From contig CAVPXI010000014.1 of NCBI GenBank assembly GCA_963709585.1, positions 320,001 to 384,000 of the forward strand: DNA of 64,000 nucleotides, read 5' to 3'. Under the pieces are notes generated by a model. It was not told the origin of the DNA. It made no database searches and worked only from the letters and a program-made list of their open reading frames with translations. How positions within the stretch are numbered: position 1 is the first letter of the stretch; every line of letters begins with the position of its first letter. The position numbers were made by a program, and so were the translations under genes. The DNA comes from Candidatus Dormiibacterota bacterium (GTDB lineage: Bacteria > Chloroflexota > Dormibacteria > Aeolococcales > Aeolococcaceae). This document shows, piece by piece, positions 647 through 64,000 of the stretch.

Positions 647-1336
647 TCACGCGGGGAATGCAGGCATCATGCAGCTCGGGTCACCCGCATCACGAGGACA
701 GAGGTCAGCCCCGGCGAGCACAAGGCCGCCGGCCACGTCGGCAAGGTAGTGCTGTTTCACGAGGACGGTCGACGCGACGATCAGCGCGGCCCAGATTGCG
801 GCTGGGAGGCCGATCCGCCGGTCGACGCGCCACCAGTGCAGGGCGATGATCGTCGACAGCGATGTGTGCAGGCTCGGGAAGTCGTTGTAGGGCTGATCGG
901 ACGCGTAGATGCTTCGGATCAGCCCGGAGAACGGGTCGGTGCCGACGACCTGCGGCCGTGCGACGTACGACTGCAGGAAGAAGTAGAAGGCGTAGCTGAT
1001 GAACCACACGATGATCATCGTCAGCGCGGCGGACCGGTAGACGCGTACGCGAAAGAAGAGAAACGCGATGAGGCTGACGACGATGTAAGGAATCAGCGAC
1101 ACGTAGGGGATGGCGAAGATCGGCACGACCGGCAGCGCTCGGTCCAGCGGCGTCTGCAGGAAGATGCGGTTGGGACCATGGTTGAGTGACCCGTAGATGA
1201 GGTTGGTCCCGAGGATCGCGGGGATGAGCAGCAGGCTCACGGTCAGGCCCCAGCCGCGTTCGGGGAGGATCCCGCGGCCGAGGTGGGTGTTCAGCCACGT
1301 GGAAGGCGGCGCGGGCGTTTCGGCTACCTCGCTCAT
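647..1336 (-). CDS. PAP2-family membrane phosphatase/phosphotransferase (C-terminus probably frameshifted)
   Basis: FPSLH and STVLVKQHYLADV motifs; several TM helices; GGAGG RBS. Confidence 0.85.
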   Translation of the reverse strand: MSEVAETPAPPSTWLNTHLGRGILPERGWGLTVSLLLIPAILGTNLIYGSLNHGPNRIFLQTPLDRALPVVPIFAIPYVSLIPYIVVSLIAFLFFRVRVYRSAALTMIIVWFISYAFYFFLQSYVARPQVVGTDPFSGLIRSIYASDQPYNDFPSLHTSLSTIIALHWWRVDRRIGLPAAIWAALIVASTVLVKQHYLADVAGGLVLAGADLCPRDAGDPSCMMPAFPA

Positions 1337-1422
1337 GTGGCTCCTCCCGGTTCACCCGATTGCGCGGTGAGCCTACCGCGGCACCGTCGCCTGCGCCGAA
1401 TGGCGGGTACCATGGTCGGGAC

Positions 1423-1499
<77 letters not shown>

Positions 1500-1500
1500 T

Positions 1501-1845
1501 TCGCCTGAGCGCTATCAGCGCGTCCGGCCAGCGGACGCCCGGGGCAACAGGATCTTCCTCGCGGCCAGGCGTGATGCCTTCGGCGAGTACGCGCCGCTGA
1601 CAACCAGCGGCGTCCTCCAGCTCCTCCGTGGCGCGGCCGACCGCGCCGCGATCACACGGCATGTGCACCCGCACCTCCTCCGGCATTCGTTCGCGACCGA
1701 GGCGATGCGCCGCGGCATGAACCCGGTGCAACTCGCCCAACTCCTCGGACATAGCGGTCTGCGCATGATCGAGCAGGTCTACGCTCACCTCAACGCGGCT
1801 GACGTCTACGAGGCAGTGATGCGCACGCTCACGGTCCAGAAATAA
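1501..1845 (+). pseudogene. Tyrosine recombinase/integrase, C-terminal fragment only
   Basis: HPHLLRHSFAT, LLGHS and VYAH (catalytic Tyr) motifs; no start codon or N-terminal domains between tRNA end and these motifs. Confidence 0.85.
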
Positions 1846-1881
1846 CCGGAAAACCCAGCCCGCCAGACACACACAGAACCA

Positions 1882-2193
1882 GCTCGCTCCCTTGGTACCG
1901 CTCCTCACTGACACATCAGCCCTTCATCCCACTTCGTTGTGGCAGTGAGGAGCGGGAGCTACGGACAGCAACGCTGGCCGGGGCAAGGGGAGCGAGCGGC
2001 CGCCTGTTGAACTGAAATGTCCGTCGGAGGCGCGCCGGCGTCGCTTTCAGTGGGGTGGCTAGTTCGACTAGCCACCTGAGTAGCCGGGGCCCTTTCGAGA
2101 TTTGAGCACCTACCATGCCGGGCAAAGCAGCGAGCCCGGCGGTCGTCCGCCCATTGTCAGAGGTCGCGTTCCCACGTCAGCAAGGGAAACGCG
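1882..2193. ncRNA. Highly structured intergenic tract (candidate ncRNA or structured ssDNA element)
   Basis: Nested stems 1882-1894/1984-1997 and 1898-1910/1943-1955; hairpins 2054-2076, 2117-2140, 2165-2193. Confidence 0.4.
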
Positions 2194-2220
2194 CCGCAAC
2201 GGGTTCGTGATCGACTGGTG

Positions 2221-2236
2221 ATAGCATCTGTGCTAT
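2221..2236. promoter_or_regulatory. Palindromic operator overlapping toxin start codon
   Basis: ATAGCA-TCTG-TGCTAT inverted repeat, typical of TA autorepression. Confidence 0.6.
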
Positions 2237-2582
2237 GGGTTGGGGCACGGTCGAACTCGAGCCGGAAGTAGATGAGTGGCTCTTCGGGCTCGACGACGAG
2301 TTGTTCGGCCGCGCCGCCTTCCACATCGACCGCTTAGAGGAGAAAGGAGCCCTACTTGACGAGCCGTACACCCGCCAACTCGACGGCAAGCTACGCGAGT
2401 TGCGCTTCTACCTTGGCGGCCAGCCGACACGGGTCAGCTACTACATCGCTCACGGCCGGAGGATCGTTCTCTTGACCGTGTTTGCGAAGACGAGGCAACA
2501 AGAGAAGCGGGAGGTCGCTCGAGCCAAACGAGTGATGGCTCGGTGCATTGCCGAAGGACATGTCGAGGAGGATTCACGATGA
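2235..2582 (+). CDS. Type II TA toxin, RelE/ParE (HigB, Gp49-like) family
   Basis: EPYTRQLDGKLRELRF...RVSYY...IVLLTVFAKTRQQE..EVARA. Confidence 0.9.
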   Translation: MGWGTVELEPEVDEWLFGLDDELFGRAAFHIDRLEEKGALLDEPYTRQLDGKLRELRFYLGGQPTRVSYYIAHGRRIVLLTVFAKTRQQEKREVARAKRVMARCIAEGHVEEDSR

Positions 2583-2866
2583 GCAGGAAGACATGGCAGG
2601 AAGTCCGGGCCAATCGACTGGCGACGCCGGCGGCGCGGGACGCATACTGGCGCGCCCAGCGAGCATTTCAGATCGGCGAGGAGGTGCGTCGGCTCCGCAT
2701 CGCCGCCGGCCTTTCCCAGCGACAGCTAGCGGACAAGATGGGTTCGAGCCAGTCCGTCATCGCGCGCCTCGAGGCCGGCGGCGTCGAGCCAACGCTTGCT
2801 ACGCTCGATCGGGTGGCGAGCGCCCTCGGCGCAGATCTCGATATCCACTTTGCTGCGATTGCTTAA
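2579..2866 (+). CDS. XRE-family HTH antitoxin (HigA-like)
   Basis: RLRIAAGLSQRQLADKMGSSQSVIARLEAG; ATGA overlap with toxin stop. Confidence 0.9.
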   Translation: MSRKTWQEVRANRLATPAARDAYWRAQRAFQIGEEVRRLRIAAGLSQRQLADKMGSSQSVIARLEAGGVEPTLATLDRVASALGADLDIHFAAIA

Positions 2867-2896
2867 CGTCGGCTCGTGCGGCCGGGAGGTGTTGGC

Positions 2897-5009
2897 TTGA
2901 GGTTTCAGAGCATCGATATCCGGAACTTCCGTGCTATTCAGCAGTTCTCCGTCGGAGATCTAAGCGACCTAATCCTCATTGCTGGACCAAACGGCTGTGG
3001 CAAGTCATGCATCCTCGACGCGATACGACTGCTCAAGAGTGTCTACGGCGGATACCAAACGAACGAGTGGATGCAGTGGTTCGGCGAATTTCAGGTGAAT
3101 CTCAATGACCCGAACAACCTCAGCGGAGTCTTCCGCGACAAGCAAATACCCATACAGATATCGGCGGTTATTCAGTTAGCTGCGGCTGAAACCGCGTTTT
3201 TGGCGGAGCACGCGTATCCATTATGCGAGCCAATCATCTGGGCCGAGGTCACGCGTCTCCCCATGGAGGCATACCTGTACTCCCCCCTTGCGTACGCGGC
3301 TCAGTACCCCGCACTCGTGCCTGAGGTCGCTCAACGCTGTACGGATACTGCCGCCGAGCTACAGAGCGAGGTCGCAAAGGCTACTCACTCGCTCTCGTTG
3401 ACACTGTTTCCGACCGGCCAACTCCTTACGTCGCCCTCCCTCGTCGCGAAGGTCATCTTTCAGACTTACGATCCTGAGCACCTCGGGATCATCGACTTCC
3501 ACAGTGCGTCCCGTACCTATGCTCGCGAGGCAATCGGTGGCATTTAATCTGGACGTGAAGGCTCTCGAGACTCAGCGGCGGACACAGACGTTGTACAACT
3601 GGCAAGCAAAATACCAGAACATCAAGTCCGAGTTGGTCACGATGTATGTGCGCTCGCTGGTGTCTCAACAGGCGGGCGGTCCCGACAACGCATCGCAAAC
3701 CCTCGACGAAACCCTGAAGGAGCTTTTCTGTACCTTTTTTCCAGAGAAGGAATACCTCGGCGTGCAGGCATCCGAGGACGGAAGCATCGAGCTTCCCGGT
3801 TCGCCTCTCGACCGGGGAAACGCACGATATCAATGACCTCAGCTCTGGAGAGAAGGAGGTCTTGTACGGTTACCTTCGTCTACGCGGTTCGACGGCGGGC
3901 AACTCCACGATCCTGCTCGACGAGCCAGAGCTCCACCTGAACCCGGGGCTTCTCCAGGGCTTTCCGGACTTCTACTTCAGGCACCTCTCGAGAGGGCTCG
4001 GCAACCAACTCTGGCTGGTGACGCACTCCGATGCGCTGTTACGGCAACGGTCGGGAACCCAAATTTCAGCGTGTTCCACATGACCAGTGCAACAAACGTT
4101 GCACACGGTTCAAATCAGGCAGTTGCGGTCGCCGAGGACGAAATGGAAGCGGCGTTGCTCGACCTCGTCGGTGACCTGGCCGCCTATCGACCAACGGGCA
4201 AGGTCCTCATTTTCGAGGGAGGCGGGGATCGCGATTTCGACGTCAGCGTAGTACGGCGGCTTTTCCCTGACCTCGGCGCGCATGCGAACTTGATTAGCGG
4301 CGGATCAAAGGGGCGCGTCCGCGATCTGTATCGCGCCCTCCAGCGCCTGGCGGAACAAACCGGGTTGGCCGACCGATACTTCGCGATCACGGACCGCGAC
4401 AGCGAAACTCAGGTCGACGACTTGCCCGAAGGCCACGTGTTGTCTTGGGACGTCTACCACATCGAGAACTACCTTCTGGATCCGGAGTTCGTCTTCCGAG
4501 CCTACGCCGCTGTGGTAGCGACCCCAGTTCTTGATGAACCCGCCGCGACGGCGGATGCCTTGAAACGTGTTGCGGAGCGAAGCATTAGCAGGGTGGTTCT
4601 CGTACAGCTGCAAGAGCGAGTGAATAACGAGCTGATGGAGAGCATATCGATAGGGGCGGCACCCGACACCCCGACACCGGCTCGAGACCTCCTGCCTTCT
4701 ATCGAAGCCTCTCTAGACCGAGTCACCGCGTTGAGGGCGTCAGTTGGAAATGCAGCGATTCTTGACGAGTGGGCCACGAGCTACACGGAGGAGTTGCGAG
4801 CGACGATTGCCGACGGAAATTGGCTTGGTCATGTCCCGGGTCGAACCATCCTTCACGCGTTCGTTAACGAGTATCTCGGAGGGGCTGTGACGTACGACGG
4901 TTTCGTCAACCTCATCATTAACCAGATGGTCGCGGTCGGTCATCAGCCGGCAGCCATGAGCGCGGTTCTGGCGCGTGTAACCGCCACCCATCCCCGCCCC
5001 GAAGTTTAG
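2897..5009 (+). CDS. Fused ABC/AAA_21-type ATPase + TOPRIM (DUF4435-like) protein, PARIS/OLD-like; about 700 aa after correcting three frameshifts (near 3544, 3792, 4048)
   Basis: TTG start after GGAGG; IRNFRAI, Walker A GPNGCGKS, signature LSSGEKE, Walker B LLDEPELHL, H-loop VTHS; TOPRIM FEGGGDRD, ITDRD, YHIENYLL. Confidence 0.8.
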
Positions 5010-5707
5010 CGGGCGCCGTCTGACAGCAGCCCGCCAGCTGCATTGATGATGAGTTGCCCTGCTTCTAGGCCTTCATGGCAGAGCCTCTTGGTGCGTTCAA
5101 TCGCTCGCGGTCTGCGCGCTCGGTCGCCTCTCTTCTCCGTCCGCTGTAGGTCAAGTTCGTGGGAGACTTGGTTTCGGGCAATGAACAAGTCCTTGAGCTG
5201 CCTAATCCGCTCGCGCAAAGTACGTGCGTCGATCCCAAGCGCGCCCGCAATTCTGTCCACCTCATCGGCCGATTGGAGGCTAGATCCCGTCAGTTCGTAC
5301 ACGTAATCTTCAATGAGTTGGCTCCGGGGGTCCGGGCTGGTCAGATAGCGTGCGACCGACTTCGAGTCAGCGAGGTCGCCAATCCCGAGCTTGCTAGCGG
5401 CAAACGCCTCAAACTTATCGTGGGCTTGACGGCTTACTGCCAGAAGGCTTGGCAGCGTGTCGCGGATCAAACGCTTCAGACTTGCATCGAGGCCCGCTCC
5501 AGTGAAGACGATCGCCGCTCGAAGAAGATCCTCTTCGTTAGCCGGGAGGCGGCCCTTAAGTAGCGTGCCCTTGGCTTTCCGAAGCGCACGGATAGTCGCA
5601 AGGACGTCAAAAACGGCCTCTACCGAGTTGAAGGCGCTCGCCAAATATCGCTGCGCCGTCTCAGTCCCGGGTTCACCGCTTGCCGGCGGAAGCGGAGGTA
5701 GATGCAC
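5006..5707 (-). CDS. HEPN-domain protein (putative RNase)
   Basis: N-terminal DLLRAAIVFTGAGLDA helix and RNQVSH (RxxxxH) motif; stop overlaps that of the ATPase-TOPRIM gene. Confidence 0.72.
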   Translation of the reverse strand: MHLPPLPPASGEPGTETAQRYLASAFNSVEAVFDVLATIRALRKAKGTLLKGRLPANEEDLLRAAIVFTGAGLDASLKRLIRDTLPSLLAVSRQAHDKFEAFAASKLGIGDLADSKSVARYLTSPDPRSQLIEDYVYELTGSSLQSADEVDRIAGALGIDARTLRERIRQLKDLFIARNQVSHELDLQRTEKRGDRARRPRAIERTKRLCHEGLEAGQLIINAAGGLLSDGAR

Positions 5708-5990
5708 GCTTCCGATCGTACATAGACTTCGAGGACGCGTAGTGAATCCAACTTATCAACGTCGAGCTGCGCAGATTCCTTGGCGCCTACGACCTGAAGA
5801 CGTCGCAAGTGGCACTCCCTACACGGGCGCTGCGCCGGCACCGAAGCCTGGCGCCGGGGGTAGGTTGGCGCCGAACATCAAGACACATGATTGCGCGAGG
5901 CTGCCGCTCCTAAGCAGAGCAGCGTCGCAAGCTGACGCTGCTCTTGAATTCAGGACTGGACCAATTTCGACCCGAATGAAGAACGCAACT

Positions 5991-6035
5991 CTTCCAAGCT
6001 GGATGTCGCAAGTTCGAATCTCGTCTCCCGCTCCA
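5991..6035 (+). repeat. attR: duplicated 3' half of tRNA-Gly
   Basis: 44/45 identity with 1455-1499. Confidence 0.93.
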
Positions 6036-6085
6036 ACTTTGTCCAGGACCTGACCTTCAGCAAGCACTTTCATGGATGGGTGCGA

Positions 6086-6290
6086 TGGCGTCATGGACAC
6101 GCCGCGGGCGGTGGCACGCGAACTAACACGCATGGAAGAGGATGCTCCAGCGGTGCAGCAGTTCAACGCGCACCGACTGGCCACGCTACGGCGGTCGGGG
6201 TATCGGGTCCGGGAGCGTTGGCACCGTTTCGAGAACTTCCTCGCGGAGGTTCGAGAATGTCCTCCCGGGCTCTCTGTGGACCGTGGACAC
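6086..6290 (+). pseudogene. Phage-type HNH endonuclease remnant
   Basis: Across two frameshifts: RHGH...AWKRMLQRC...RYGGRGI / RVRERWHRFENFLAEVRECPPGLSVDR; truncated before the HNH core. Confidence 0.7.
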
Positions 6291-6311
6291 ACGGTGGCTC
6301 CCACCGCGGTG

Positions 6312-7181
6312 TCAGTTGTCCTTGGTTAGGACGTCGCGCAGCTTGTGGGCGAAGGCTTCGGGCTGGCCGGCGTAACCGAATTCGCCGCCTGCGAAGCCCG
6401 CGTGATGGCTGGGGAAGACCGTCGCCTGCTGACCGAGTAGTTCGGCTGTGGCCACCGAGGTGCGTCCGGTGAAGGTCCCAGCGGACTCTTCGCCCACAGC
6501 GATTACGATGCGTGTCGGCGCGGCCACCAGCGCTTCGACGTCAGGGCGATAGCTGCTGACCTCCGTGGAACGCTCGGAGAGCAGGGGGTTGTCCCGGGAG
6601 CCGTCGTCCTCGCTCGGCATCCCGAACTGGGCGGGATCCGGTGTCGCTTGCGCGAAGTATTCCTCGGTGAACTCTCCCTGCCACGACGTCATGGCAATGA
6701 AGGCCGCCATCCCGAAACCCTGCCCCTTAGCCGCGTACGCGTCCCGAAATTGCGCCATGGCGCGGTCGGCGGCCCCCGCATCCGGAAGCACCGGCACCAG
6801 CGGCGGCTCGTGTGCCACCAGCACGGCGACGTCGTTGGCATATGCCTCCACAAGGGCGAGCGAGGTGACCGCGCCGCCACTGCTCGCGAACATCTCGACC
6901 GGCCCGACGTCGAGAGCCCGGATGACGGCGTGCACATCGCCCGCCTGGACGGCGGGCACGTTGTCGACCCGGCCGTCTTTGCGGATGCTGCGACCGAGAC
7001 CGCGCGGGTCATAGGTGACGACGGTGCGGTCGGGGAAGTACGACGCCAACGTTCGGAAACCGCTGGCATCCATGGGCTGCCCGATCATGAAGAGTGGTGG
7101 GCGTCCGTCGGCGGTGGGCAGCGGGCCCTCGACGTCGTAGACGATTGCGGCCTCCGCTGTTTCAAGTGTGTGTGTCTTCAC
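6312..7181 (-). CDS. Alpha/beta hydrolase
   Basis: YDPRGLGRS, ASSGG nucleophile elbow, LVAHEPP, FPSHH. Confidence 0.88.
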   Translation of the reverse strand: MKTHTLETAEAAIVYDVEGPLPTADGRPPLFMIGQPMDASGFRTLASYFPDRTVVTYDPRGLGRSIRKDGRVDNVPAVQAGDVHAVIRALDVGPVEMFASSGGAVTSLALVEAYANDVAVLVAHEPPLVPVLPDAGAADRAMAQFRDAYAAKGQGFGMAAFIAMTSWQGEFTEEYFAQATPDPAQFGMPSEDDGSRDNPLLSERSTEVSSYRPDVEALVAAPTRIVIAVGEESAGTFTGRTSVATAELLGQQATVFPSHHAGFAGGEFGYAGQPEAFAHKLRDVLTKDN

Positions 7182-7196
7182 ACCGGCCCCTCTCCG

Positions 7197-7700
7197 TCAA
7201 TCCACGAGCAACCGCTCGAGCTTGTCGAGCTGCTCGGACCAGCCCTGCTCGGCACCGGCCATCGCCTCGGCGGGCGGCATCGGCTCGAAGTAGGACTGTC
7301 GCATGGTGAGCGCGGTGCCCCCGTCGCGATCCTCAAGGGTCACCTCAATGAGCGTCGCGAACAGCTCCCCCTGCTCGTCATTGACGGCCCGGCCGCTCAT
7401 GACCAGGCGACGCGGACGGTCGATCTCGTAGTACTCGCCACCCATGTAGTGGGAGAACCGGGCGTCGGCGGGGATGGCGTCCGGCCACTCCATCGCGAGC
7501 CGGTACGTCCCCCCGACGCGAAGGTCGACCTCTGCGGCGGGGCATGTGAAGCCGTTGGGCCACCACCATTTCTTGAGCTGGTCCGGGTCTGTGAAGGCGT
7601 CAAAGACCCGCTCCGGCGAGGCCTTCAGGGTGCGCTCGATGACGAGCTGCTTGCTCGGAGTCGCAGATCGGACGTCCACGGCGGTGCGGGTCTCAGGCAT
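7197..7700 (-). CDS. SRPBCC/AHSA1-domain protein
   Basis: IERTLKASPERVFDAFTDPDQLKKWW...DLRVGG...GWSEQLDKL. Confidence 0.88.
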   Translation of the reverse strand: MPETRTAVDVRSATPSKQLVIERTLKASPERVFDAFTDPDQLKKWWWPNGFTCPAAEVDLRVGGTYRLAMEWPDAIPADARFSHYMGGEYYEIDRPRRLVMSGRAVNDEQGELFATLIEVTLEDRDGGTALTMRQSYFEPMPPAEAMAGAEQGWSEQLDKLERLLVD

Positions 7701-8049
7701 CGGGGTTCTCCTCCGTAATGGTTGACTCGGTTTGGGCGGCAAGATGGGCGTCGAGACGGTCGAGGCGGTCGGACCATTCGGCGTGGGCACGACGGAGCCA
7801 GTCGTCCACCGGGAGCAGCCCCTCAAGCTGAAGTCGCGCCGGGCGGCGCTGGCCGTCGCGGGCCCGACCGATCAGGCCCGCCCGCTCGAGCACCTTGAGG
7901 TGCTTGGTGATGGCAGGCTGCGTCAGTGTGGAGGCATCTGCGAGCTCGACCACGCCGGCTTCCCCGGCCGCGAGGCGCTCGAGGATCGCCCTGCGGGTGG
8001 GGTCGGCAAGGGCCGCGAAGGCGCGGCTCAGGGAGTCCTTCATATCCAT
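7693..8049 (-). CDS. ArsR/SmtB-family transcriptional regulator
   Basis: FAALADPTRRAILERL...TQPAITKHLKVLERAGLI. Confidence 0.92.
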   Translation of the reverse strand: MDMKDSLSRAFAALADPTRRAILERLAAGEAGVVELADASTLTQPAITKHLKVLERAGLIGRARDGQRRPARLQLEGLLPVDDWLRRAHAEWSDRLDRLDAHLAAQTESTITEENPDA

Positions 8050-8078
8050 TACCAAGAGGTTATATTACCAGATGGTAA
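8049..8078. promoter_or_regulatory. Tandem ArsR-type operator palindromes
   Basis: TTACC-N4-GGTTA (8049-8062) and TTACC-N4-GGTAA (8065-8078) at the regulator start. Confidence 0.6.
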
Positions 8079-8121
8079 AAGTCAACGGTGTGTCGACCTG
8101 CCGGCTGTCACCGTCCCGTCG

Positions 8122-9564
8122 TCATGGTGGACCGAACCAGGAAGTCAGGGCGTCATGCAGTCCCGTATCGGTGCCTTCCCCCACCCAGGCGACATGTCCG
8201 TCGGGCCGGATCAACGCGGCAGTGGGAGCGGTGACCGCGCCAAGTACCGGAAGTTCCCACAGCCCGGCATGTTCAGCATCGATCACCTGGACCCGGTCCG
8301 CCCACGGTGCGATGTCGAAGCCGCCGGGCGCACCGAGGTTGAGCAGCACCGGCTTGGCGTCGTGCAACAACGAGAACACCCGCACGGTGCCATCCGCAGT
8401 CGCGAGATCCAGGTCGGGCATGCGGCGCCCCAAGAGCGGATGTCCCTCACCGAGGTCATACGCAACGTCGAGGCCCGCGATCATGGCGGCGATGTGCTTG
8501 CGCGGCTCGTCCATGCGCAGCAGCTCCATCACCGTATCGCGCAGTGCAACGGACCGGTCGTCCGTTGCGCCGAGCGCCCTCTGCGCCATGGTGTTCCGCA
8601 GCACCCGCGCACCAACCGGGTGGCGTTCGGCTTGATACGTGTCGAGCAGGCTCACCGGTGATGTCCCGCTGACCACCTGGGCCAGCTTCCAGCCCAGGTT
8701 GACCGCATCCTGAACGCCAATGTTCAACCCCTGGCCTCCGATCGGTGCGTGCACGTGTGCCGCGTCTCGCGCAACCAGCACGCGCCCGCTGCGATAGGCC
8801 ACCGCCTGACGTGTCATGTCGGTAAAGCGAGAGATAAAGCGCGGGCTGTGCGCCCCGTGGTCCGTTCCGTCGACGCGGATGAGCGCTGCGCGGAGATCTT
8901 CCAGAGTAGGCTCGTCGGTGCGGTTCACCTCGGGTTCGATCAGGGTGACGCCCACGCGTCCCTCCTCGGCAGGGCCGATGCCACCACCGCCACGCAGGCC
9001 GAATTCCGGCATCTCCTCCATCTCGACCTCGGCAATGATCCAGCGCGTGGTTGGATCCCAGCCCGCGAAATCGATGCCGGCCGCATTGCGCACAACGCTG
9101 CGGCCCCCGTCGCAACCAACCAGATACTGCGCCCGCAGCGATGTGCCGTCGGACAACACGACATCGACACCGCTGTCGTCCTGCGTCAAACCCGTCACCT
9201 CGCGCTCGCGCAGGATGGGAACGCTCAGCTCATCGAGCCAGCCGGACATGATGCGCTCGAAGTGGCTCTGCAACAGCGCCATCCCGTAGTTGTGGCGGGT
9301 GGGGAAATCGCTGATGTCCATCGGGACTCCACCGAATGCCTGCACCTGCACCGTCTTTCCCTCGGCGAGAAAGCGATCAACGACGCCACGCTGATCGAGC
9401 ACTTCGATGGTGCGCGAGTGCAGACCTCGCGAGCGCGGGCTTTCGAGCTTGAAGCTGGCACGTCGCTCGACGATGACAACGTCGGTCCCCGCCAATGTCA
9501 GCTCTGCCGCCAGCATCATCCCCGTCGGACCGGCTCCGGCGATCACCACCGCATGCTCGCTCAA
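8122..9564 (-). CDS. rox: FAD-dependent monooxygenase, rifampin monooxygenase (Rox)-like
   Basis: GAGPTG, GLHSRTIEVLDQRG, GCDGGRS, GGQGLNIGVQDAVNLGWKLA, GEGHPLLGRRMPD; TTG start after GGAGG; upstream RAE. Confidence 0.75.
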   Translation of the reverse strand: MSEHAVVIAGAGPTGMMLAAELTLAGTDVVIVERRASFKLESPRSRGLHSRTIEVLDQRGVVDRFLAEGKTVQVQAFGGVPMDISDFPTRHNYGMALLQSHFERIMSGWLDELSVPILREREVTGLTQDDSGVDVVLSDGTSLRAQYLVGCDGGRSVVRNAAGIDFAGWDPTTRWIIAEVEMEEMPEFGLRGGGGIGPAEEGRVGVTLIEPEVNRTDEPTLEDLRAALIRVDGTDHGAHSPRFISRFTDMTRQAVAYRSGRVLVARDAAHVHAPIGGQGLNIGVQDAVNLGWKLAQVVSGTSPVSLLDTYQAERHPVGARVLRNTMAQRALGATDDRSVALRDTVMELLRMDEPRKHIAAMIAGLDVAYDLGEGHPLLGRRMPDLDLATADGTVRVFSLLHDAKPVLLNLGAPGGFDIAPWADRVQVIDAEHAGLWELPVLGAVTAPTAALIRPDGHVAWVGEGTDTGLHDALTSWFGPP

Positions 9565-45930: not shown

Positions 45931-46717
45931 TCAGACGTTACCCGATGAAAGCGGGAGCCAGCGGGCCGCGACGATGGTCACGTTATCAGTCCCCCCGCCC
46001 GCCAGAGCGGCGTCACAGGCGCGGGTCAGCGCGACCCCGAGGGGGTCGGGCGTGGCCACGATCGCACCCAGGGCCTGATCCGAGAGCGGTTCCCAGAGGC
46101 CGTCCGAGCACAGCAGGAGGACGTCCCCCGCAGCCGCGTCGACGTCGAAGATGTCGGCTTCGACCGGGTCGCCCATCACCGCTCGCTCGATGAGATTGCG
46201 TTTCGGGTGATGGCGCGCCGCCTCCGCGTCGAGGGCACCGAGGCGGACCTGACCCGCGGCCCAGGAGTGATCTTCGGTGACCTGGGTCACCCCGGAGCTG
46301 CTGATCAGATACACACGGCTGTCGCCCACGTTGGCGACCGAGGCACGGCTGCCGCTGATGATCGCCAGGATCAAGGTCGTGCCCGGGTTGCCCCCGATCG
46401 ACTTCGCGGGCGAACGCCACCGCGTCGTTGGCGGCGGCGACAGCCCGGCGCAGCGCGCCCGCCGCGTCGCTGGCGGGCTCGGCGTCCAGCAGCGTCGCCA
46501 TCGCCGCCGTCACGGCCGCCTCGGCTGCCTCGAGGCCGCCTTTGTGACCGCCCATCCCGTCGGCGAGGGCGAGCAACGCCGTTCTCCCACCCGCCCTGAT
46601 GTGCGCATCCCAGACGTCCTGGTTCTGTGTGCGCACCGGGCCGCGGTCGGTGATCCCGGCGATCTCGAGTGCCTCACCCTCGCCGGCGATCGACCGCGCA
46701 GCGCGGTCGGCGGTCAC
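45931..46717 (-). CDS. PP2C/PrpC Ser/Thr phosphatase, frameshift near 46390
   Basis: TDRGPVRTQNQD, ADGMGGH, NVGDSR, CSDGL, GGTDNVT. Confidence 0.9.
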
Positions 46718-47437
46718 GCCCCCGCCCCGGCCTCGGCAGCGGCAGGATGACCGAGCAGGCGGCGCACCACCTCATCGGCGACGGCGACCGGGTCCAGGCA
46801 CTGGATCGTCTGCATGCCGAGGGCGTCCGCCGCCTCGACGTTGCAGAGCAGGTCGTCGATGAACAGACAGCGCTCCGGCCCCACGCCGAGCAGGCTGCAC
46901 GTCAACCGGTAGATCTCCGGATCCGGCTTGCGCATCCCGACCTTCGATGAGTTCGACCACCACGTCGAAGAGCTCGTCGACGGGGAACAGCTTGCTGAAG
47001 ATCGCCTCCCCCTCGCGTGAGATGTTGGTGAGCAGAGCCGTCCGGTATCCGGCGTCGCGGATCTGGCGGACGGCGTCCGCCATGGCGCCGCACGCGACCA
47101 TGCCGCGGCCGAAGACTGCCTGCTGCGCCTCGCGCGGATCCACCGGCTCGTTGCCGGCGGCGACGTAGCGGGCGGTCATCCGGTCGAAGAACTCGTCGTC
47201 CGAGATCTTGCCCATCTCTAGCAGGTGGAGGTCGTGGGCACCCGTGGTCAGGTGGTAGTGGTCGCGGAACTCGCCGAGAAAGAACGCGATCAGGCCGAAG
47301 TACTCGGGGGGCACATCGGTTCGGTGGTGGAAGAGGGGCTCGGTCATCACCCCGCCGAGATCAAAGATCACGGCGTCGAACTCGCGAGCGGAGGTGACCT
47401 GCTCAGAGGTTGTCTGCGGTTTTCTCATCGCCTCCAT
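46714..47437 (-). CDS. HAD-family phosphatase, frameshift near 46950
   Basis: FDLGGV, LLTN, RKPDPEIY, FIDD. Confidence 0.88.
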
Positions 47438-47466
47438 TGTGCCTAACCGTGCCAAGATGCCCGGTC

Positions 47467-53837: not shown

Positions 53838-55041
53838 CGCCGGGCGACCTCGCGGTCACGGAGAGCGGCGACCCCTGGGAGCGTCCTCCCCTCGAGGAAT
53901 TCGAGGGTGGCGCCGCCGCCGGTGCTGATAAAGCCGATCTTGTCAGCAACGCCCGCGTCCTGGACGGCGGCGGCGAGGTCGCCCCCGCCGATCACGGTGG
54001 TCGCCTTGGAGGCCGCCACTGCGCGCGCCACCTCACGTGTGCCCGCGGCGAAAGCCGGAATCTCGTAGATGCCCAGCGGCCCGTTCCAGATGATCGTCCC
54101 GGCACCGGCACAGTCGGCGGCGATGCGCGCCACCGTGTCCGGCCCGGCGTCGACCACCATCCAGCCCTCGGGGATCGCCTTCCAGGCGACGACCTGCGTC
54201 GGTGAGCCGGCGGCGGCTCGCTCCGCGACGACCCCGTCGACCGGGAGACGGAGGTCGGCGCGGCGTCCTTGCGCCGAGTTCGAGAAGACGGCGTGCTGTG
54301 GCCACCTGCTCCTCTTCCACGAGCGAGGTGCCGGTGCTCTCCCCGAGCGCGCGGTAGAACGTGCACGCCATCGCGCCACCGACCCAGAGCACATCGACGC
54401 GATCGAGGAGGTGGTCGAGCACGCCAACCTTGGTCGAGATCTTCGAGCCGCCGACGATGGCCACGACCGGGGTGCGCGGGTTGTCCATGACACCACCGAG
54501 CATCTCGAGCTCGCGAGCCATCAGCCTGCCGGCGACCGCCGGCAGCAGGTGGGCAACGCCCTCAGTGGAGGCGTGGGCGCGGTGGGCTGTCCCGAAGGCG
54601 TCGTTCACGAAAACATCCCCAAACGCGGCGAGCTGCTTCGCGAACTCCGGATCGTTCGCCTCCTCGCCCGGCTCGAAACGGACGTTCTCGAGCATGCCGA
54701 CATCGCCGTCACGCAGCGAGTTCGACCATGCTCCACGCGCTGTCGCCCACGACATCCGAGGCGAGACGGACATCGGCGCCGAGCAGGTCGCTCAGGCGCG
54801 CCGCGATCGGCCCGAGGCGAGCACTGTCGTCGATCCTGCCCTTGGGGCGCCCCAGATGCGCGACCACGATCACCCGCGCGCTTCTGTATCGGAGCGCTTC
54901 GATGGTGGGGATCGCCTCTCGGATTCGGCGATCGTCGCTGATGGCGCCGTCGCGCATCGGCACGTTGAGGTCCTCGCGCAGGAGGACCCGCTTGCCGTGC
55001 ACGTCGATGTCGTCGATGGTTGCCTTCGACACCGATGCCAC
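53834..55041 (-). CDS. pgk: Phosphoglycerate kinase (frameshifts near 54730 and 54290)
   Basis: [40 protein letters not shown]. Confidence 0.95.
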
Positions 55042-56996: not shown

Positions 56997-59900
56997 TCAC
57001 GCCGGACGCCTCTCATTCCATCCGGCAACCAGCTCCAGCGCGTGGATCACGCATGCGGGTGCTCCCTTCTGCTCGTAGCAGTCGACGGCGCGCCGGGTTT
57101 CGGCTTCAAACTCGTCGAGCTTCCCGGCGAGATACAGGACCTCCGCCATCGTGAGCGCGGCATCACCTTGCACCAGCGGTGCCTGCGTCGATCTGGCCAG
57201 CTGGTCAGCCTGCTTCGCAAGGCTGAGCGCCGCGCCGCTTTGGCCGCGCCGCGCGAGCAGCTTGGCGCGAAGCTGCAAGCCCATCGTCTGAGTCAGCACA
57301 TCATCAGTGCCGCCGTGCTCGAGGCCAAGCGTCGCCCAGCGCTCCGCCTCCTCAAACCGGCCCAGCGCATACATCGTCTCACCGAGCTGGCACTCCTGGG
57401 TTGAGAGCCAGGCGCGCTCGCCGAGTTGTTCGAGCTGTTCGATGCCCGATAGCGCGACCCGCTCCGCGCCTGCGAAGTCACCCGCGAGGGTTTCGATCCG
57501 CCACCCCGTCTGCATCGAAATCGCGGCCAACGTCACCATTCCTCGTTCACGCACCTGCTCAACCGTGGCATCGAAGAGGGATCGGGCGTCCTCGTACTGC
57601 CCACAGGACGCGAGGATATCCGCCATCCACACGCCGTGCAGGGGTTGATAGATGGGGCTCGCCGCATCCGTCGTCTCCAGCCAGAGCAGCGCTTCAGCGG
57701 CCGGAAGTCGGCCCATTCGCGACCGCTGCCGCCGCCACCCCCTGAGCATTGCGTGCCAACCAGAGCTTCCCCGCATTCGTTGCGTACGTAATCGAGCGCG
57801 TCAGCGACTCCAGCGAGACCTCGAAGCGGCAGCAGTAGTGATCGACAAATCCGGCCGCCAGCTCGAGCATTGCCAGGGAACCATCGTCGCCGCTGCGCTC
57901 GATCTCCGGTCGAGCCTCCGCCACCAACTCCCCGAGAGCGCTGTCATTTCCGGTGGGATCGAGGTTGGTCCGCCATATCGCACCGATCAGCTGTATCTGG
58001 AGCTGGCCGATGCGATCACCGGTTGCGGCAAGCGCATCAGCTGCCGTCTCCGAGCGTGCGACTGCCTCGTTCAGCCTGCCGGACATGGCGAGCCCCTGAA
58101 TGAGCGACTCTTCCAACGCCACGTCGATCGTGTGCACCGGCCGAAGCACTTCGGCCCGCTCCAGAAGGTTCACCGCCGCTGTCGTATCGCCACGGTCGAG
58201 CGCCCGGCGACCCGCGGCCTCGAGGTGGATTGCGGCGGCTCTGCCCAGAGCCCGCGCCTGCTCGTCCGCCGGACCGAGCTCGGTGCGGTAGCGGAACGCT
58301 TGCTCGAGGTGGTAGCCCGCGATCTCGTCGAGCTCCTCGAGATCGCGCCCGCGTTGCTCGAGCCACCCGGCAAAGCTGGCATGCAGCTCGGCTCTGTTCG
58401 CTTTCGGCAGCGAGTCGTATGCGGCGTCGCGAATGAGCAGGTGCCGGAAGGCGAAGGCGTCCTCGCCGGCGAACACCGGTCGGTCGGGGCGCAGGAGATC
58501 CTTGCGCACCAACGTCATAAGCTGTCCCGCCACGTCGGGCGCATCGGGCGCCATGACCTCGACCGCACCGCGATGAAAGGACTGGCCCTCGACCGAACCG
58601 CGCTCCAGCACGCCGCGTTCCTCCGGTCGCAGCTGATCGAACCGAGCCGCCAGCAACGCTTTGATGGTCGGCGGCACGATGACGTCGTGGCTGCTCGACT
58701 CGCGGACCATGGCGACGATCTCCTCCAGGAACAGCGGATTCCCCGCAGCCGTGGTGCGAATCCGTACGCGAAGTTGCGGATCGAAGGAGCCCGCCGGCCG
58801 GCAGCAACTCGTCGATCAATGCCTCGGTTTCGTCGGCGTTGAGCGGCTCCAGGAGCACCGTGGTGGCGTTGAGCTTGCCGCCCCCCCAGCCTGGCCGGCG
58901 ATCGAGGAGCTCGGCCGGCCGAGACAGAGCACGAGGATTGGGGTGCCGCGACTCAGATCCCCGATGTGCTCGATGAGGTCGAAGAGAGTCGGCTCGCCCC
59001 AGTGCACGTCGTCGAAGACGACGACGAGCGGATTGCTGTCCGCAGCGCACTCGAGCAGCTTGCGAACGGCCCACGCGATCTCGGTCGATGATATGGCCGC
59101 GATATGCTCGCCGAGCAGCGTTCGGATCGCCGCCGAGACGTTTCCGTCTCGCTCCATCAACTCGGCGGCTGCCGATCCCTCCGACGCCGCCAGCAACTGT
59201 CTCACGATAGTGATCACCGGCCAGTACGTGATGCCCTCGCCGTACGAGAGACAGCGGCCGCGCAGCACGGTGGCATCGACGCCGCGCAGGAACTCGGCGG
59301 TCAAGCGCGATTTCCCGACGCCCGCGGCGCCGAGGACGGTGAACAGGCTGCACGACCTGCCGTCGATGACGTTGGCGAACGCGTCGCGAAGCATCCGCAG
59401 CGGTGTGCCGCGCCCGACCATCGGGGTCTCGACCCGGGGCGATGTGGCCGAGCGTCGACGCCAATGTGCAGCAGCCTGTACGCGGGCACCGGCTCACTCT
59501 TTCCCTTGAGCTCGAGCGGTGCCAGCGGCTCCACGGTCACCGCGTCGCGCACCAGTCGCCACGTCTCCGGACCGATGACGATCTCCCCCGGCGCAGCAGC
59601 CTGCTCGAGGCGCGCGGCGACGTTGACGGCGTCCCCGGTCGCGAGGCGTTCCTCGGTTCCGGTGACGACCGGACCAGTGTTCACGCCGGTGCGCACCGTG
59701 ACCGTGGTTCCGTAGTCGCGTGCGAGCTCGCTGTTCAAGTCGGCGAGGGCATCACGCAGTCCGACAGCCGCGCGGACGGCGCGCAACGCATCATCCTCGT
59801 GCAGAACGGGCACGCCGAACACCGCCATGACCGCATCGCCGATGAACTTCTCCACGGTCCCGCCATGCTGCTCGATGACCTTTCGCGCGGCGTCGAAGTA

Positions 59901-60094
59901 GCGGCGCATCACCTGGCGGAGGCTCTCCGGGTCCAGCCGCTCCCCCATCGCGGTCGATCCCGTGACGTCGCAGAAGAGCACCGTGACGGTCTTGCGCTGT
60001 GCCCTCGGCGCCTGTGCCGTTGTCAGCGGTGAGCCGCAGCCGTTGCAGAAGCCCGCGTCCGCGGGGTTCTCCCTGCCGCAGTTGGCGCAGGTGT

Positions 60095-60098
<4 letters not shown>
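56997..60098 (-). CDS. Zinc ribbon + class III adenylate cyclase + AAA ATPase + TPR-like protein (several frameshifts)
   Basis: CANC..FCNGC, LFCDVTGST, EKFIGDAVM, GDAVNVAARLE, GAAGVGKS, VFDDVHW, GNPLF, FRHLLIRDAAY. Confidence 0.88.

Positions 60099-64000
<3,902 letters not shown>

Follow-up and report, generated by a model that had tools for sequence, protein, structure and literature searches.

A frame-broken fused PARIS gene and a predicted stand-alone HEPN protein lie side by side in a tRNA-Gly-linked island of a Dormibacteria genome

Do two convergent genes, one encoding an ATPase-TOPRIM protein and the other a putative HEPN ribonuclease, form a single two-effector defence system, or are they neighbours that arrived in the same island? 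The question was raised by a first-pass annotation of positions 2,897 to 5,707 of a 64,000-nucleotide stretch (the window) of contig CAVPXI010000014.1 (C14; positions 320,001 to 384,000) of Candidatus Dormiibacterota bacterium, assembly GCA_963709585.1. The stretch is rich in G+C, and the genome of 3.52 Mb in 24 contigs is 88.8% complete. The annotation had considered both an undescribed two-effector system and two independent systems captured together. The evidence presented here makes it likely that the locus is an ordinary defence island in which independent defence modules were captured together at a tRNA-Gly gene, with no new two-gene system. The ATPase-TOPRIM gene is assigned to a named system, the fused form of PARIS (AriAB). 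It and the HEPN gene are neighbours and not partners, because homologues of the two were not found side by side in the loci compared.

The ATPase-TOPRIM Gene Is a Divergent Fused PARIS Gene

The AriAB gene (2897..5009, plus strand) is spread over four frames in the assembly. A whole-genome profile search with the PADLOC model of fused AriAB (PDLC02981) matched all four pieces and covered the profile collinearly from position 3 to position 691 of 694. Piece 1 (2876-3547, frame 2) corresponded to profile positions 3-219 with an E-value of 6.4e-46, piece 2 (3504-3836, frame 0) to positions 213-296 (E = 2.5e-14), piece 3 (3862-4083, frame 1) to positions 294-379 (E = 1.2e-24), and piece 4 (4071-5009, frame 0) to positions 380-691 (E = 1.3e-55). 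A second copy was not found in the genome with this model, its four other matches being P-loop stretches alone. Alignment of the four pieces with 17 homologues of full length (about 695 residues) showed that they tile the family and that no residue is lost. The reassembly of four open reading frame (ORF) fragments into one ABC-ATPase/TOPRIM protein of about 700 residues, as proposed in the first-pass annotation, was thereby borne out.

The ABC ATPase (AriA part) is N-terminal and the DUF4435/TOPRIM nuclease (AriB part) C-terminal. The motif set was complete, as had been claimed, with each of the motifs named then falling on a conserved column. Read from the sequence on the plus strand, GPNGCGKS (2984-3007), LSSGEKE (3838-3858), LLDEPELH (3913-3936), and VTHSD (4018-4032) occupy columns that are invariant among the homologues, and the ATPase part was matched by the Pfam families AAA_15 (E = 5.8e-10) and AAA_21 (E = 1.4e-7). 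In the TOPRIM part, FEGGGD (4212-4229), DRD (4392-4400), and HIENY (4458-4472) were read in the same way; the glutamate of FEG, both aspartates of DRD, and the residues HIEN are invariant in the 17 homologues. Besides the AriAB model, piece 4 was matched by the PADLOC model for AriB (E = 2.9e-6), and Pfam DUF4435 reached an E-value of 7.4e-5 with 23.1 bits against a cut-off of 27. The likely start codon is TTG at 2897, seven bases after a GGGAGG stretch (2884-2889).

Homologues were numerous: 574 proteins scored at E ≤ 0.001 among 8000 candidates. The 120 that were listed are 569-793 residues long, the majority near 700. Identity to the homologues seen ranged from 32 to 53%, with the best at 51-53%. 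Because all four pieces match the AriAB model collinearly, the gene is classed on its sequence as a divergent member of a named system, fused single-gene PARIS, in line with the earlier suggestion of a PARIS-type ABC ATPase plus DUF4435/TOPRIM architecture for which fused forms are known. Standard defence finders would overlook it solely through the broken frame in the assembly.

The combination of an ABC ATPase with a TOPRIM domain is also the architecture of OLD/GajA-type (Gabija-like) nucleases, and the PADLOC models for GajA (E = 2.6e-9) and Old (E = 3.7e-8) did match piece 1. These matches, however, span the N-terminal P-loop stretch alone (residues 11-94 and 9-53); those to piece 3 were weak (E = 0.006-0.008), and the TOPRIM piece was unmatched. 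The AriAB model, in contrast, matched over its full length with far better E-values, and the AriB and DUF4435 models matched the C-terminal piece. Moreover, a helicase ORF was not found among the neighbours of the gene, which are a helix-turn-helix (HTH) gene and the HEPN gene, in agreement with the earlier statement that no GajB helicase accompanies it. We consider an OLD/GajA-type identity so improbable that it can hardly be entertained.

Fusion forms of PARIS are described in section 9 of PMC9122126 and section 4 of PMC11464382. The parts of PMC11464382 (Burman et al.) that treat the two-protein system of Escherichia coli report that the ABC-ATPase part holds the nuclease activity of the TOPRIM part in check until the AriA-AriB complex senses a phage protein, for example Ocr, an anti-restriction protein. 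The activated nuclease then cuts host tRNA, translation stops, and the infection is aborted; the complex is neutralised by a viral tRNA. The gene described here resembles that system in its succession of Walker A, signature, Walker B, and H-loop motifs in the ATPase, followed by a DUF4435/TOPRIM domain with the conserved glutamate and DxD. PARIS is often found on mobile islands according to the same parts of PMC11464382, and the AriAB gene likewise lies on an island. It differs in being broken into four frames and in residing in a high-G+C soil bacterium, whereas studies of the system have dealt with the two-protein form from E. coli. In a fused AriAB protein, activation would presumably proceed by a conformational change and not by release of a separate subunit.

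The Convergent Gene Encodes a Predicted HEPN-fold Protein

The gene facing AriAB (5006..5707, minus strand) encodes a stand-alone protein of 233 residues, predicted to have a HEPN fold and to be remote kin of the RiboL-PSP-HEPN family. The two genes lie tail to tail, the AriAB stop codon TAG occupying 5007-5009 on the plus strand and the HEPN stop codon TAA 5006-5008 on the minus strand, an overlap of 2 nucleotides. An arrangement of this kind, with overlapping stops and an Rx4H protein of 233 residues, had been noted in the first reading of the sequence and was found again here. The motif consists of R178-N-Q-V-S-H183 (5159-5176, minus strand). In an alignment of 30 sequences, N179 and H183 never vary and at least 90% have R178, a pattern that agrees with the Rx4-6H signature of the last core helix of HEPN proteins.

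Profile searches gave a lead below the threshold of certainty. Pfam PF18735 matched the protein with an E-value of 5.5e-4 and 20.3 bits, under its gathering cut-off of 28.4, and was matched at E ≤ 0.01 by 16 of the 30 family members, the best at 3.2e-5. PF18735 was also assigned to 23-58% of the members of the ESM Atlas clusters closest to the protein (score 0.97). The protein therefore reads as a remote relative of PF18735 and no certified member. Scans with the PADLOC and NCBIfam libraries yielded no model that matches it.

Structural comparison was consistent with this lead. An alignment-based AlphaFold2 model was all-helical, with a pLDDT of 88.4 and a pTM of 0.87. When it was compared with 48,161 chains by VIA-align, HEPN domains or toxins took seven of the eight top places with Z values of 8.2-10.1, namely 1ufb (10.1), 3o10 (9.6), 2hsb (9.2), 5yep (8.7), 4nqf (8.7), 1ylm (8.6), and 1wol (8.2); of these, 1ufb and 1ylm are structures that we take to be HEPN proteins. 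Some observations weigh the other way. Z values of 8-10 are no more than modest for a bundle of helices, and Foldseek returned no match to the model in the PDB at E ≤ 0.001. When the PDB was searched by sequence with the HEPN profile, only chance-level matches (E ≥ 0.34) appeared. In combination with the motif and the lead from Pfam, the fold matches were taken as sufficient to accept a four-helix up-down HEPN fold for the modelled protein, in agreement with the HEPN label of the first-pass annotation.

The protein belongs to a large family. A word-indexed search yielded 292 proteins at E ≤ 0.001, the best non-self homologues being 69-71% identical and 227-235 residues long. An exhaustive search gave 775 cluster representatives at E ≤ 0.001 and 567 at E ≤ 1e-10. 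A functional name was not attached to the homologues in any source listing; those that are named are called "hypothetical protein."

AriAB and HEPN Are Probably Neighbours, Not Partners

Several features of the locus would suit the idea that AriAB and the HEPN protein constitute one functionally coupled system with two effectors, in which HEPN might, for example, act as an additional RNase or step in when PARIS is blocked. The stop codons overlap, both genes are predicted to encode effectors that target RNA, and the arrangement is retained in metagenomic contigs from a soil run (X1, introduced below) that cover 3394-5846. The contexts in which the two families occur were therefore compared.

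The HEPN homologues were located in 64 loci, 10 from genomes and 54 from metagenomes, several of them mutually redundant. These loci were searched by tblastn (E ≤ 1e-3) with 56 full-length AriAB homologues of 680-730 residues, taken from the first 60, and the window served as positive control. Only the window was matched; an AriAB homologue was present in none of the 64 loci. The sequence extended for at least 2.1 kb on the side equivalent to that of AriAB in 31 of them and on the other side in 28. All-against-all clustering of the ORFs from the 64 loci did not reveal any recurrent partner of HEPN; the clusters that recurred consisted of HEPN itself, its shadow frames, and contigs that duplicate one another. 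A Pfam scan of 107 neighbouring ORFs showed that the contexts vary and that many of the genes have a bearing on defence or mobility. McrBC, AIPR, BrxL with Schlafen/AlbA_2, HsdR, SIR2_2, NERD, RelA_SpoT, DUF4238, and IrrE-HTH were among the families encountered, and integrases, IS110 and Mutator transposases, and a TraI-like helicase represented mobile elements.

The reciprocal comparison required a wider search, since the C-terminal part of AriAB was detected in only one of 400 other genomes sampled from the phylum, too few for a study of context. For this reason viral contigs and plasmids were sampled. Nine AriAB-like loci were obtained: three with full-length fused genes on viral contigs, three weak viral matches, two on plasmids, and the one in a genome of the phylum sample. 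The HEPN profile matched in none of the nine. In the viral locus L078, one HEPN homologue gave a weak tblastn match (E = 0.003) immediately downstream of AriAB; the 107-residue ORF in question was not matched by the HEPN profile (hmmsearch, E ≤ 1), and the tblastn match was for that reason taken as chance. Confirmed HEPN homologues were not found in viral contigs.

One of the plasmids deserves mention in its own right. On this small plasmid, NZ_CP053715.1, a stretch of 7 kb (positions 1947-8567) contains an AriAB-like fusion gene together with a MazEF pair and a distinct PARIS-like two-gene cassette of an ATPase and a DUF4435 protein.

Other observations likewise speak against a coupled system. 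The genes converge, so that a common transcript for the two is not possible. Fused and two-gene PARIS are each described as complete alone in the relevant parts of PMC9122126 and PMC11464382. The best homologues are 69-71% identical for HEPN but 51-53% for AriAB, and this far higher conservation of HEPN suggests separate histories. The proposal of an undescribed two-gene system thus fails, because the homologues never occurred together in the loci compared and because the ATPase-TOPRIM gene alone matched a named system, two outcomes that the first-pass annotation had itself listed as grounds for giving it up. Its other option, two independent systems captured together, fits both the lack of co-occurrence and the existence of PARIS as a named single-gene system.

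Some points argue for caution about this separation. The tight 3' overlap is found in X1, X2, and X3 as well, but these strains share one island with the window and do not count as separate instances. The AriAB-like sample is small, with nine loci, of which six are full-length fused and 32-41% identical to the window or to its homologues. The closest AriAB homologues, with about 50% identity, lie outside the sample used for context, and a clade-specific pairing is possible. A weaker form of coupling, peculiar to this island, may also be envisaged, in which the 3' overlap links expression of AriAB and HEPN via antisense transcription. Taken together, a true two-effector system is very improbable, and we retain the view that AriAB and HEPN are independent neighbours.

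HEPN as a Candidate Single-gene Defence Family

With AriAB set aside as a partner, HEPN itself can be compared with known stand-alone proteins. Those parts of PMC13043305 that concern HepS, which is encoded by the prophage Gifsy-1, describe a single-HEPN abortive-infection protein that recognises the tail-tip proteins of phages and cleaves the anticodon loops of tRNA. Both HepS and the protein studied here are stand-alone HEPN proteins without a partner gene and lie on a mobile element, and our model aligned to 9oik_A at a Z value of 6.6. The two differ in that a sequence relationship was not detected and that the fold match is weaker than to minimal HEPN domains. The Ribo L-PSP-HEPN family (PF18735), as listed in Table 1 of Anantharaman et al. 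2013 (PMC3710099), shares with our protein the Rx4-6H motif; the scores obtained here are below the cut-off, however, and neither a fusion to L-PSP nor a ParB neighbour was seen.

The hallmark of HEPN-MNT toxin-antitoxin pairs, an adjacent antitoxin gene for a minimal nucleotidyltransferase (MNT), is absent at this locus: in the island the neighbours are the convergent AriAB gene and an attachment repeat, with no conserved upstream ORF. None of the 107 neighbouring ORFs scanned in the loci of HEPN homologues belongs to a nucleotidyltransferase family.

The HEPN family is widespread, strongly conserved, always found alone, and often near defence genes and mobile elements. By analogy with HepS, we tentatively suggest that the proteins of about 230 residues could form a large and as yet uncharacterised family of RNases that act in abortive infection as single genes, sensing phage and cutting RNA alone. 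The family is the one lead from this locus worth keeping, as a reasonable single-gene defence candidate that is missing from the libraries of defence models searched.

Assembly Error or Decay in the AriAB Gene

The AriAB reading frame is broken at three places, and contigs of four soil-metagenome runs (X1 to X4) were compared with the assembly over window positions 1300-6400. X1, X2, and X3, all from a single study, show about 0.5% difference from the window. X4 was produced in a separate study, and hardly a letter of its pieces deviates from the window. Frameshift 1 (3543..3545, plus strand) is caused by one extra T in a TTT run, which is absent from X1, X2, and X3 and present in X4. Frameshift 2 (3789..3789, plus strand) is one extra G outside any homopolymer and is absent from X1, X2, X3, and X4. 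At frameshift 3 (4047..4048, plus strand) one base is missing; X1 and X2 have a G after 4047, and X3 and X4 do not reach this site. With the three indel states of X1, the ORF from 2897 encodes 703 residues and ends at the same stop codon, compared with 216 residues as assembled. An open 703-residue AriAB allele certainly exists in sister strains from soil.

The assembly itself provides reasons to distrust the breaks. The genome's sole PGK match is distributed over three frames (53885-55017 of the window, minus strand; profile positions 1-99, 98-247, and 246-379) and is flanked by intact gap and tpi genes. This gene is very likely needed, and its division is probably due to assembly indel errors. 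Because the only PGK gene is also split, some or all of the AriAB breaks may be errors as well. A second uvrA-like gene (G000:C21:134381-137156) is split into two adjacent frames, with profile positions 1-444 and 446-924, and a cyclase/AAA_16/TPR gene of the window (56997-60098) is likewise divided, into four overlapping pieces.

A different outcome would be that AriAB is a truly dead pseudogene, with three real frameshifts, in an island that is a decaying relic and offers no defence beyond HEPN and HigBA (see below). Against it, the state at 3789 is contradicted in all four runs, near-identical X4 included, and that at 4047 in both runs that cover the site. The AriAB pieces contain neither an in-frame stop codon nor a deletion and have kept every motif, and the split of PGK shows that breaks of this kind also occur in this assembly in a gene that is very likely needed. 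Nevertheless, a number of observations suit real decay better than error. X4, an independent and near-identical run, keeps the 3543 state, and both X4 and the window have valine at position 4833, where phenylalanine is invariant in 17 homologues. X2 carries an extra 1-base gap of its own at 3784 together with several nearby substitutions and, taken at face value, would be out of frame beyond that point. Between the window and X1-X3, 11 of the 17 AriAB substitutions listed are non-synonymous; ten further differences exist beyond this list. The integrase of the island, moreover, is reduced to a stub. Finally, because rpoB, rpoC, and the main uvrA gene are unbroken, indel errors are at most patchy.

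Weighing both sides, we judge a wholly dead gene with three genuine frameshifts unlikely. Assembly errors or rare variants are the probable cause of the breaks at 3789 and 4047. For the break at 3543 the balance tips slightly towards its being real in this strain; if it is, AriAB is inactive here. Frameshifted "pseudogenes" of this genome call for read-level checks, because the assembly splits the only PGK gene too.

The tRNA-Gly Island and Its Other Genes

AriAB and HEPN are the last two genes of an island of 4.5 kb that is linked to a tRNA-Gly gene and delimited by attachment repeats. The tRNA-Gly gene (anticodon TCC) was located by ARAGORN at 1423..1499 on the plus strand. A direct-repeat search identified its 3' 56 nucleotides (1444-1499) as the left attachment repeat and a 56-nucleotide copy with 91% identity (5980..6035, plus strand) as the right one. 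The G+C content is 55-61% within 2800-6000, compared with 65-70% beyond. A tRNA gene, a direct repeat of its 3' end, an integrase remnant, and a deviant base composition, all of which are present, are the features expected of an island integrated at a tRNA gene. The gene order is integrase stub, HigB-like gene, XRE-HTH gene, AriAB, and HEPN.

The tyrosine-integrase remnant (1552..1845, plus strand) directly follows tRNA-Gly and was recognised by PF00589 (E = 2.6e-14, residues 65-146 of the ORF at 1360-1845). The gene has lost its N-terminal part, and only the C-terminal 95 or so residues are left (positions 96-170 of the 172 in the Pfam profile); the same stub occurs in the X1 contig that covers 1470-2720. 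Because the integrase is a C-terminal remnant only, the island is probably immobile. In the X3 contig, 51 nucleotides just past tRNA-Gly (window 1498-1550) are omitted and several nearby bases differ; the contig probably derives from another organism or allele with the same tRNA.

Between the integrase stub and AriAB lie two plus-strand genes that overlap by 4 nucleotides at start and stop. The first (2235..2582) encodes a HigB/RelE-like toxin of the Gp49 family (PF05973, E = 2.8e-14; the NCBIfam RelE/ParE match is weak). The second (2543..2866) encodes an XRE-type HTH protein, a HigA-like antitoxin or regulator, with a Pfam HTH_3 match at E = 1.7e-15 and an NCBIfam match to the Y4mF-family antitoxin (E = 4.1e-13) that is below the cut-off of the model. 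Its start is probably the ATG at 2579 (Met13 of the translation), overlapping the upstream stop codon. A Gp49-family toxin gene followed by an XRE-HTH gene resembles, as far as sequence can tell, a HigB/HigA type II toxin-antitoxin system. Since AriAB starts 31 nucleotides past the HTH stop codon, regulation of AriAB by the HTH protein is conceivable as well.

The locus would accordingly be pictured as a decayed integrative island of 4.5 kb at tRNA-Gly whose cargo comprises three independent modules: a HigB/HigA-like toxin-antitoxin pair, a single-gene fused PARIS, and a stand-alone HEPN protein that, on the HepS analogy, may be an abortive-infection RNase which both senses and acts alone.

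Other Observations in the Window and the Genome

Several irregularities were noticed elsewhere. On the minus strand, an ORF of 1142 residues (60502-63930) combines a complete UvrC (GIY-YIG, UVR, RNase H-like, and HhH) with portions of an NAD-dependent DNA ligase, namely its OB fold, its zinc finger, and the C-terminal part of its adenylation domain, and may be a misassembly or chimera. The adjoining RapZ gene (60095-60505) comprises the C-terminal domain only. At 56997-60098 (minus strand), guanylate-cyclase, AAA_16, unassigned, and TPR ORFs overlap in different frames and look like one protein of about 1000 residues in four pieces. A PP2C phosphatase fragment (profile positions 105-141 only) and a HAD hydrolase fragment (profile end only) at 45931-47455, also on the minus strand, suggest more broken genes. 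Outside the window, the end of rpoB and the start of rpoC are present on both C15 (243220-247041) and C16 (192232-197061), and these two contigs probably overlap.

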